Virus record (IMG/VR): IMGVR_UViG_2695420687_000013 | Coordinates: 1-7,496 of that record | Length of the DNA: 7,496 nt | Source: a virus | Lineage: Duplodnaviria; Heunggongvirae; Uroviricota; Caudoviricetes | Direction: 5' to 3' (one strand) | In this document: piece by piece, positions 3,001 to 6,000 of the stretch | Position numbering within the stretch: position 1 is the stretch's first letter | Layout: every line of letters starts with the position of its first letter | Program-made: the position numbers

Positions 3001-6000
3001 CAATCTCCCTGCTGCCGGCAGCCGGAGAGGCTGCTGCGCAGGGCTGGAGCATTAAGGATGGCGGAATTCAGTTGTCAGATGGTGTATTTAAGATCACCAA
3101 GCAGAGCAATAAAACCTGGTCCCTGACGCATCCGGTGGATGACGCAATTACCCTGCTGACACAGGGCGGCAGACTGACCTGTAAGTTCCGCCTGTCAGGC
3201 GCACTGACCAACAATCAGTTCGGGCTGGGGATTTATCTGTATACGGATGCTCCCGTTCCTGATGGTGTGGCGATGACAGGTACCGGTAATCCGTTCCTGA
3301 TGTCGTACTTCACTCAGACCACTGACGGCAGAGTGAATCTGATGCATCACAGGAAAGCCGGAAACACGAAGCTGGGGGAGTTCGGCGATTACGGTAACGA
3401 CTGGCAGACGCTGGAGCTGGTGTTCACCGCCGGCAGTGCCACGGTTACTCCGAAACTGAATGGAGTGGCTGGCCCGGCATTCCAGGTCATAAAAGACAGT
3501 CTGACACTGGGGCTGAATGCACTGACGCTGACGGATGTTACAAAAAATGCAGCGTATGGCGTTGAGATAGAAAGTCTGGTGCTGGAGATAAATGCACCCG
3601 CAGCATAATAAAAAAAGCCAGCGCCCACTCTGAAGGACGCTGGCTAAAACGGGTAGATGTACTTCACATGATACTTATATCTGGCAGTACATTTTCTGAC
3701 AGATAGTGACGGATGTTGTCAAGATATTGTGTCATTTATAACCTGAATCAGGGGAGGCCGGAATGTTATCTGGCATTTTTAGCAGAGCCTGAATGCCATA
3801 ATCACGGCTCCCGGCGTTGGCCGTCAGTGGGTGACACTGGCGGCTTTTTTGTTTTTCTTTACTTTCATTTTCTGTCGGCGGTGACGGAGACATACATCAG
3901 ATGGAAAAAATCACAACAGGTGTGTCATACACCACGTCAGCGGTGGGGACGGGATACTGGTTACTGCAGCTGCTGGACAAAGTCTCTCCGTCCCAGTGGG
4001 TGGCGATAGGTGTGCTGGGGAGTCTGCTGTTTGGCCTGCTGACGTATCTGACTAACCTTTATTTCAAGATTAAAGAAGATAAGCGTAAGGCGGCGCGGGG
4101 AGAGTAAAGCGATGAAGAAAAAATACGAACTGGTTGTTAAAGGGATAAATAATTACCCGGATAAGATTACTGTTACTGTGGCACTGGAAATTGGTGGGTA
4201 TCCGTCACTGTTGTTGCCAAATGTGGCGATTAGTCTTGACCGTACTGAAGGTGCCACGCTGGAGTTTTACGAAGCGGAGGCGAAAAAGCAGGCGAAGCAG
4301 TTTTTCATGGATGTTGCTGCCGGGTTATGTGAAGGGGATGGTCCGTTGCCGGAAAAGCGCCCCGTCATTTTAGAGGCGCAGGATGTGTTGATAACCTACA
4401 GAGGAAAACTACCGGGAATAATTACTGGTTCTCTGAAGACTCCACCGCTGGCCTGAAGACTTAATATATCCAGGGATTTGAAATCGATAAACCCTGATAA
4501 ATATCCATGAACGCAAAAATCAGATACGGCCTGTCGGCTGCCGTTCTGGCGCTGATTGGTGCAGGGGCGTCTGCGCCTGAAATCCTCGACCAGTTTCTTG
4601 ACGAAAAAGAAGGTAACCACACCACGGCATACCGTGATGGTGCGGGTATCTGGACCATCTGCCGCGGTGCCATCCTGGTGGATGGTAAACCTGTCGTTCC
4701 GGGCATGAAGTTGTCGAAGGAAAAATGCGACCGGGTTAACGCCATTGAGCGTGATAAGGCGCTGGCATGGGTGGCGAAAAACATCAAAGTGCCACTGACT
4801 GACCCCCAGAAAGCGGGTATTGCGTCATTCTGTCCTTACAACATTGGCCCAGGTAAGTGTTTCCCGTCGACGTTTTATAAACGAATTAATGCAGGAGATC
4901 GAAAAGGTGCCTGCGAAGCGATTCGCTGGTGGATTAAGGACGGTGGCAGAGACTGCCGTATTCGCTCAAATAACTGTTATGGTCAGGTATCCCGTCGTGA
5001 CCAGGAGAGCGCTCTGGCGTGCTGGGGAATCGACAGATAAGCAGAATATTTTGCTGAAAAATGACGTTGGCCAGCGCGGGCGGATAACACGAAATCCTGC
5101 GAACTGGCAAAATGTAAGTGAATAAAGTTAGGCAGATTATTTCACGCAGAGGCACCGTAATGGTGCCTTTGTCATTTCTGCGCTTCGCACAAGCGTAAAT
5201 AAACCAAAGAACCTTTCAGGATGAGCCCTGGTGGATAACCGGCAGTGGTCTGGTTAACCCTCTTTGGGCTGGTTATTCCTGTGCGCAGGGTTCATCACTA
5301 AAAGGAATCAACCATGAAAGAGATGATTTCTGTCGATCATGAAATATCCATGAGTAGTCTGGATTTTCTGAATAACATTATTAATCCAGCCCGGGCAGAA
5401 GCCGGAGAAGTCCCTCATGAACCGCGTAAGTTTCTTGCAAAAATTGAGGATGAGCTAGAGCTTGATGGAACCGGAAAAAAATTCCGGTTAAACAATAACC
5501 AAACAAGAACGGCATACTATGATCTGGATTTTGACCAGATGATGCTCGTTGGCATGAGGGAGTCAAAGGCCGTTCGTCGTTCTGTGCTGGCAAGACTCAA
5601 AGCGATGCATGGTATTCAGATCCCCCGGACTTTACCTGAGGCGTTGCGATTTGCGGCAAAACTGGCTGAACAGAAAGCAGTGCTGGAAAATCAACTGGCA
5701 ATAGCAGCGCCGAAGGCTGAATTTGTTGATAACTATGTTGAAGCATCTGGTCTGATGGGATTCCGGGAAGTTGCTAAGTTACTCGGTATCAAAGAAACCG
5801 ATTTCCGGCTGTTTTTGTTGGAGAACGGAATAATGTATCGCCTCGCTGGAAAAATGACGCCTTACTCGCATCACCTGGATGCGGGGCGGTTTAGCGTGAA
5901 AACGGGCGAGGCGGGCAATGGTCATGCTTTTACGCAGGTTAAATTCACCCCAAAAGGTGTTCAGTGGATTGCTGGTCTGCTTGCTGCATGGAGAGCTACC

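Follow-up and report, generated by a model that had tools for sequence, protein, structure and literature searches.

The lysis cassette and the start of its holin gene

This work concerns a lysis cassette in viral DNA of the Caudoviricetes, IMG/VR record IMGVR_UViG_2695420687_000013. The stretch analysed runs from position 1 to 7,496 of that record, and the whole 7,496 nucleotides (nt) are called the window here. The cassette lies at 3901-5040. Its genes were placed by a listing of open reading frames (ORFs) and by direct reading of the sequence. All are on the plus strand. The holin gene S is at 3901-4107 (68 amino acids, aa), a DUF1327/YdfR-family gene is at 4112-4456 (114 aa) and the lysozyme gene R is at 4507-5040 (177 aa). 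An earlier reading of the sequence alone, which we call the original prediction, had put ORFs in these three places, and all of them are confirmed. From left to right, the cassette and its neighbours are nanS-p, a terminator, S, the ydfR-like gene, R, an ant-like gene, a small ORF and Rz/Rz1. We argue that this is likely to be the late-region lysis cassette of a lambdoid prophage of the H-19B/Shiga toxin 1 (Stx1) phage type with stx out of view, that its S is a natural pinholin allele without an antiholin, and that the DUF1327 gene is variable cargo and not a replacement antiholin.

S matches PF04971, 'Bacteriophage P21 holin S', with 112 bits (cut-off 26; E 1.2e-32) over profile positions 1-63 of 64. 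It also falls in the PHROG holin families. The S21 type that it was given in the original prediction is therefore correct. The first transmembrane domain (TMD1, about residues 5-26) is weakly hydrophobic, with Kyte-Doolittle values of 0.3-0.6 and 50% Gly, Ala, Ser or Thr. TMD2 (about residues 33-55) is strongly hydrophobic, with values up to 2.1, and the C-terminal tail of 13 residues is basic. TMD2 contains G37, S41 and G45, which we take to be the glycine-zipper positions of the S21 literature. These features point to a class II holin of the phage 21 type, hence a predicted pinholin. By homology, and given its SAR-type partner, it would form small heptameric pinholes of about 2 nm, which would depolarise the membrane without letting a cytoplasmic endolysin through.

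The original prediction also described S as a single-start holin, and this stands. From the in-frame TGA at 3832-3834 to the ATG at 3901 the codons are CAC TGG CGG CTT TTT TGT TTT TCT TTA CTT TCA TTT TCT GTC GGC GGT GAC GGA GAC ATA CAT CAG. Every one of them was checked, and there is no in-frame ATG, GTG or TTG among them. The single near-cognate codon in this stretch is the ATA at 3892-3894 (plus strand). When the last 30 bases before the start are aligned without gaps to MYQM, MYRM, MLRM and MKSM alleles, this ATA takes the place where all the others have the ATG of Met1. Within the codon, A and T are invariant in the alignment and the third base alone differs. The ATA is a vestige of the dual start, at the position where the rest of the family starts its antiholin. 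S does not have the dual-start motif, which is two in-frame Mets with a Lys or Arg between them. That motif marks regulation rather than membership, and S stays a member of the PF04971 family. The sole Shine-Dalgarno-like element for S is a GGAG at 3886-3889 (plus strand), 11 nt before the ATG.

R is a lysozyme of GH24 with the T4-lysozyme fold (PF00959, E 3e-24; endolysin in PHROGs), and it is 90% identical to RrrQ of Escherichia coli K-12. It aligns to the phage 21 lysozyme structure 3HDE over residues 9-174, with the N-terminal membrane segment included, and also to the R21 structure 3HDF and to RrrD (4ZPU). In the 3HDE alignment E35, D44 and T50 of R fall on E35, D44 and T50 of R21, which is the E-8-D-5-T spacing of T4 lysozyme. 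Residues 8-24 (GLSAAVLALIGAGASAP) follow a basic n-region, MNAKIR. They are 65% Gly, Ala, Ser or Thr, moderately hydrophobic, and align to the signal-arrest-release (SAR) region of R21. The SAR-like N-terminus and the T4-lysozyme spacing claimed for R thus both hold. There is no Cys in residues 1-30 and the first one is C52, which puts R with the R21 type and not with the disulfide-caged type of P1 Lyz. The SAR segment has an A-S-A motif that is followed by Pro at +1. Since Pro at +1 blocks cleavage by signal peptidase I, this fits an uncleaved SAR segment. On this evidence R would be a SAR-type endolysin of the R21 kind that is released from the membrane. No Shine-Dalgarno-like sequence lies within 15 nt of its start codon, in the 4457-4506 region. 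There is one in the 3' end of S, GGGGAGAG at 4097-4104. In Sakai-type cassettes this element directly serves R, and here it serves the DUF1327 gene.

Loss of the dual start in the Shiga toxin phage clade

The cassette is already known, with annotations in many phages and in thousands of prophages, and its pinholin/SAR nature has been described for Stx phages. Window 3700-5100 is 95-97% identical in nt, over its full length, to H-19B, YYZ-2008 and many Stx1a-converting phages. Their annotated layout is stx, nanS-p, a 207-nt holin gene, a YdfR-family or hypothetical gene, a 534-nt lysozyme gene, ant and Rz. A longer part, 1830-7496 (about 5.6 kb), is 98% identical to lambdoid E. coli prophages without stx, such as the one in FORC_042. 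The order there is Q, tRNA, a terB-like gene, nanS-p, class II holin, YdfR family protein, lysozyme, antirepressor, a small ORF, lysis protein, TonB family protein and terminase. Nearly all Stx phages have a predicted pinholin and a SAR endolysin, and the holins of H-19B and 933W belong to the P21 holin S family (PMC8136144, PMC10462455). The S protein of the window is 100% identical to that of YYZ-2008, Stx2 phage 1717 and Stx1a phages. H-19B, YYZ-2008 and Stx1_EH1995 share the single-start 5' end of the window, ...GGAGACATACATCAG ATG. Some Stx1a phages match the window from position 3898 onward only, which implies that the start codon of S is close to a mosaic boundary.

The distribution of the single start was examined in 86 loci, made up of 80 IMG/VR contigs plus phage records. 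The I-H-Q-M form is found in 26 of them. The others have two in-frame Mets, mostly as M-Y-Q-M and in some cases as M-N-Q-M, M-D-Q-M or M-K-S-M. The same identical 68-aa protein is found behind both 5' types. We then counted alleles in 5,426 complete E. coli genomes, using a 70-nt probe across the single-start junction and a probe of the M-Y-Q-M type. The single-start probe hits 2,838 places, spread over 692 of these genomes, and the allele is at least 99% identical in 672 records. The M-Y-Q-M-type 5' end occurs at 5,984 places in 2,408 genomes. The original prediction proposed to align S with Stx-phage S genes and treated the missing start as a peculiarity that needs a special timing mechanism. 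The loss itself is borne out by the alignment, with Met1 changed to ATA here. However, the closest relatives (H-19B, YYZ-2008 and the Stx1a phages) have lost Met1 too and have the same single-start 5' end, an outcome that the original prediction had itself named as refuting it. With the allele present in 692 of 5,426 genomes, the idea of a peculiarity that calls for its own timing device finds no support.

A wider survey took about one genome per species across the Enterobacteriaceae and gave 62 loci. Outside the Stx-type clade of E. coli and E. albertii, every locus (59/59) has a dual start, with Lys or Arg among the residues that separate its Mets. The forms seen there are MKSM, MYRM, MLRM, MHRM, MRM.., MKM.. 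and MIRYM. The Stx-type clade reads MYQ, MNQ or MDQ, or else IHQ. In the dual-start alleles of this clade (933W/Sakai type; loci L017-L086, L004 and L005) the residue after Met1 is Tyr, Asn or Asp, and it is never followed by a basic one. The nearest outgroup holins, which are 81% identical and come from Enterobacter and others, read M-Y-R-M-E-K-I-T-T-G. The most parsimonious order of events would be M-Y-R-M -> M-Y-Q-M -> I-H-Q-M, where the basic residue is lost at the first step and the start at the second.

According to a review, S2171 and lambda S107 behave as antiholins as a result of their extra positively charged N-terminal residue (PMC9636201). The M-Y-Q-M product has no Lys or Arg between its Mets, so we infer that it was probably already poor in antiholin character. 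The dual-start motif would then have been decaying in the Stx-type clade already, and losing the start probably completed this decay as a near-neutral change. Of the S copies of this clade that were counted in the complete E. coli genomes, about 1/3 are single-start (2,838 vs 5,984 of the M-Y-Q-M type). In the remaining two thirds the second start is there, but no basic residue goes with it. What is new here is modest: the ATG-to-ATA vestige, the sister allele that has no basic residue against a family-wide Lys/Arg rule, and the modular cargo between S and R. MKSM, MYQM and IHQM form a cheap natural allele series for asking what an antiholin contributes.

The gene between S and R and the timing of lysis

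The DUF1327 gene starts 4 nt past the stop of S. Its 114-aa product is a member of PF07041, with 154 bits against a cut-off of 25 (E 1.2e-45), and belongs to phrog_406, a family of unknown function. A search found 280 relatives of it, and among those listed with an organism name all are from Escherichia or Shigella. It is 46% identical to K-12 YdfR over residues 1-74. Read by eye, the sequence has no obvious hydrophobic segment or signal sequence. Structure prediction gave one usable model out of five, with three strands and a helix in residues 1-73 and low confidence for the remainder. With a mean pLDDT of 63, this model had no Foldseek match at E <= 0.001 in the PDB or BFVD.

Up to three modules make up the gene between S and R. 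These are a DUF1327 N-terminal domain, a coiled coil with EKKRRDEQFAAFYDYC and a C-terminal domain that ends in PGLTYLKGRI. Their combinations vary, as seen in the S-R gap of eight of the loci (4108-4506 in the window), and the window has the shortest form. What fills the gap may be DUF1327 alone (114 aa, as here), or DUF1327 joined to the coiled coil (176-183 aa) or to both other modules (297-329 aa). At some loci those two stand there without DUF1327 (185-214 aa), and at others there is no gene at all. Single-start holins also adjoin a 165-aa R21-like lysozyme directly, with no gene between (loci L007-L014). In Sakai and ASU11 it is a dual-start holin that has R immediately adjacent. The best reading is that the DUF1327 gene is variable cargo at a modular site between S and R. 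A correlation between the single start and DUF1327 was hinted at by the first few phage records, and it was dropped after the 86 loci had been tabulated.

One can imagine a scenario where DUF1327/YdfR took over from the lost antiholin as a regulator of lysis timing. It could be a cytoplasmic antiholin that acts on the basic C-terminal tail of the holin in the way T4 RIII does with T, or it could affect late mRNA by way of RNase E. The gene does sit inside the lysis cassette, placed for translation from the Shine-Dalgarno sequence in the 3' end of S. For the K-12 protein, binding to the catalytic half of RNase E has been reported together with co-purification of RNA, and an earlier genetic screen cited in the same study tied ydfR to envelope integrity (PMC13232886). 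However, K-12 cells that over-produced YdfR grew without a defect, and few of their transcripts changed (PMC13232886). If DUF1327 stood in for the antiholin it should go with the single start, but among loci with enough downstream sequence it follows 13/25 single-start holins and 28/59 dual-start holins. In the Qin prophage it lies beside the canonical MKSM dual start of essQ, and many single-start cassettes do without it. The gene is modular and variable in length, like cargo genes, and the fold search with its product came back empty. A separately encoded antiholin of the T4 RI/RIII or P1 LydB type is not what the 114-aa gene looks like, since it is not associated with either start type, coexists with a dual-start essQ and encodes no hydrophobic segment. 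The original prediction had suggested this gene as one possible setter of lysis timing, and we do not uphold that. We consider a replacement regulator very improbable. A related proposal is that the Stx clade dropped a charge-based antiholin in two steps (Arg to Gln, then ATG to ATA) and that DUF1327/YdfR is an accessory that tunes lysis-gene expression, and with it the timing of lysis and toxin release. This is quite improbable as well.

Another way to save the dual start is to let it persist at a low level, with a longer antiholin-like product made by non-canonical initiation at the ATA at 3892. The ATA is exactly at the Met1 position and lies 2 nt 3' of the GGAG. That spacing is too short, however, and E. 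coli initiates translation very poorly at ATA. The product would begin with fMet-His-Gln and would have no Lys or Arg, so it would be without the feature that the review names for antiholins (PMC9636201). We give this almost no weight. It could also be argued that the cassette is a silent remnant of a decayed prophage, where the state of the start codon has no consequence. To the left of nanS-p there is a yicL-like chromosomal gene instead of phage late-regulatory DNA. Interspersed N's lie within 1758-1777 (20 nt), exactly where this gene meets the start-codon region of nanS-p. But the yicL-like part is about 83% identical to E. coli yicL and the nanS-p side is about 98% identical to E. coli prophages, so two unrelated sequences seem to have been joined here in assembly or in the consensus. 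Every lysis ORF is intact, and the same S allele is present in phage records deposited as complete genomes. The question of the allele covers a whole family, not this copy alone. A silent remnant is unlikely.

It must be noted that several points weigh against S being an antiholin-less pinholin as we describe it. Beyond the N-containing join the window is no guide to the Q gene and the late promoter upstream of the cassette. The 11 nt between the GGAG and the ATG of S are a rather long spacing for initiation. Folding of the RNA of 3856-3945 for an sdi-like structure gave a weak stem at 3871-3888 over part of the GGAG, with a z-score of -1.2 that is not significant, so the stem predicted over this Shine-Dalgarno sequence is without statistical support. 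The charge argument comes from a review (PMC9636201). We found no experiment on this S allele in the literature, and pinholes, SAR release and the lack of antiholin activity are drawn from homology and sequence.

If S is an antiholin-less pinholin and DUF1327 is cargo, the course of lysis can be sketched by homology with phage 21. Late transcription, antiterminated by Q, would pass the hairpin at 3819-3855. S would be made from the single ATG at 3901 and would build up in the inner membrane. R would be exported by Sec and held there, tethered and inactive, by its uncleaved SAR segment. At an allele-specific concentration S would trigger and form small pinholes that depolarise the membrane. R would then be released, refold and degrade the murein, and Rz/Rz1 would disrupt the outer membrane. 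In this scheme the time of lysis would depend on the level at which S triggers, an intrinsic threshold, and also on late transcription and the initiation rate at the single start.

Lysis in this form does not require an antiholin. Removal of the lambda antiholin mainly adds noise to the timing of lysis, meaning that the antiholin tunes precision (bioRxiv 10.1101/2020.05.17.100420), and phage HP1 has a pinholin without a dual start (PMC7312051). Both cases argue that an antiholin is a fine-tuner. The lysis cassette of Stx phages follows stx closely, and toxin and phage alike leave the cell by lysis. Alleles that alter the timing of lysis, or its variability from cell to cell, could affect toxin release.

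Neighbouring genes and known systems

About 45 nt 5' of S there is a terminator-like hairpin at 3819-3855 (plus strand), found by a terminator scan. It has an 11-bp stem and a 5-nt loop and is followed by a TTTTTGTTTT T-run. It includes the in-frame TGA at 3832-3834 and is kept in H-19B, YYZ-2008 and Stx1_EH1995. We infer that it is a terminator that Q-modified polymerase reads through. A second strong terminator-like hairpin (11 bp, 8 of them GC) with a T-run lies on the minus strand at 3616-3645, directly after the stop of nanS-p. The nanS-p-type sialate O-acetylesterase gene (1758-3608, plus strand; PF03629 and PF20350) is directly 5' of the lysis cassette. Alignment with FORC_042 and YYZ-2008 shows that its first codons are masked by the interspersed N's. 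Window 1-1757 contains a setC-like MFS transporter ORF of 228 aa, which is probably a fragment, and the yicL-like EamA transporter gene. Both stand much further from E. coli sequence than the prophage part does, which hints at an enterobacterial host other than E. coli or at a chimeric contig.

Downstream of R, the Ant-like gene with a KilAC domain is at 5314-6009 (plus strand; PF03374, E 2.7e-28; phrog_63). It is annotated at the same position between R and Rz in YYZ-2008, Stx1_EH1995, VT2-Sakai and E. coli FORC_042. A strongly hydrophobic ORF of 43 aa is just 5' of Rz at 6104-6235 (plus strand; phrog_4906, E 6.6e-24, unknown function). It is conserved inside the lysis cassette between the Ant-like gene and Rz, and it is called hypothetical in FORC_042 and Stx1_EH1995. 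The i-spanin Rz is at 6247-6705 (plus strand), with 152 aa from the ATG at 6247 (PF03245, E 9e-50; phrog_13). Its FORC_042 counterpart of 459 nt is annotated 'lysis protein'. The o-spanin Rz1 at 6458-6643 (plus strand; PF06085, E 1.7e-21) translates as a lipoprotein with the lipobox VSAC. It is embedded in the +1 frame of Rz, and the pair is a two-component spanin of the embedded architecture. After Rz/Rz1, window 7023-7364 encodes a lipoprotein of 113 aa (lipobox LVMGC) that ends in a TonB C-terminal domain. It is a TonB family protein according to Pfam and PGAP and an 'Rz-like spanin' according to PHROGs (phrog_1267), which is a probable annotation inconsistency.

Of the known systems, H-19B (AF034975), YYZ-2008 (NC_011356) and the Stx1a phages are like the window in the order nanS-p, S (207 nt), DUF1327, R (534 nt), ant and Rz. 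They differ in that the window shows no stx. Its Ant-like gene has an annotated length of 696 nt, as in FORC_042, against 570 nt in YYZ-2008. The S of 933W and VT2-Sakai has a holin core that is 92-94% identical and goes with the same R family. Published work describes it as a pinholin of the P21 holin S family (PMC10462455). Unlike the S of the window it has two in-frame Mets (M-Y-Q-M), without a basic residue between them, and in Sakai R comes directly after S with no DUF1327.

Phage 21 itself was compared by way of PF04971, the R21 structures and relatives of the MKSM type (K-12 essQ and phage 3W). Its S21 and R21 are alike in belonging to PF04971, in the 68-aa holin product, in having two TMDs with a weakly hydrophobic TMD1, and in a SAR-like R with E35, D44 and T50. 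The dual start of phage 21 is Met1-Lys2-Ser3-Met4, whereas the window has ATA at Met1. The R of the window is of the 177-aa RrrQ type and is distant from the 165-aa R21 (a phmmer match of 64 bits). The window also has an extra gene between S and R, and an ant-like gene between R and Rz. The Qin prophage of K-12, with essQ-ydfR-rrrQ-rzpQ/rzoQ, has the same layout of holin, DUF1327 and 177-aa lysozyme. However, essQ has a canonical MKSM dual start (MKSMDKLTTG...), and ydfR overlaps rrrQ by 4 nt in Qin, whereas a 50-nt gap separates their counterparts in the window.

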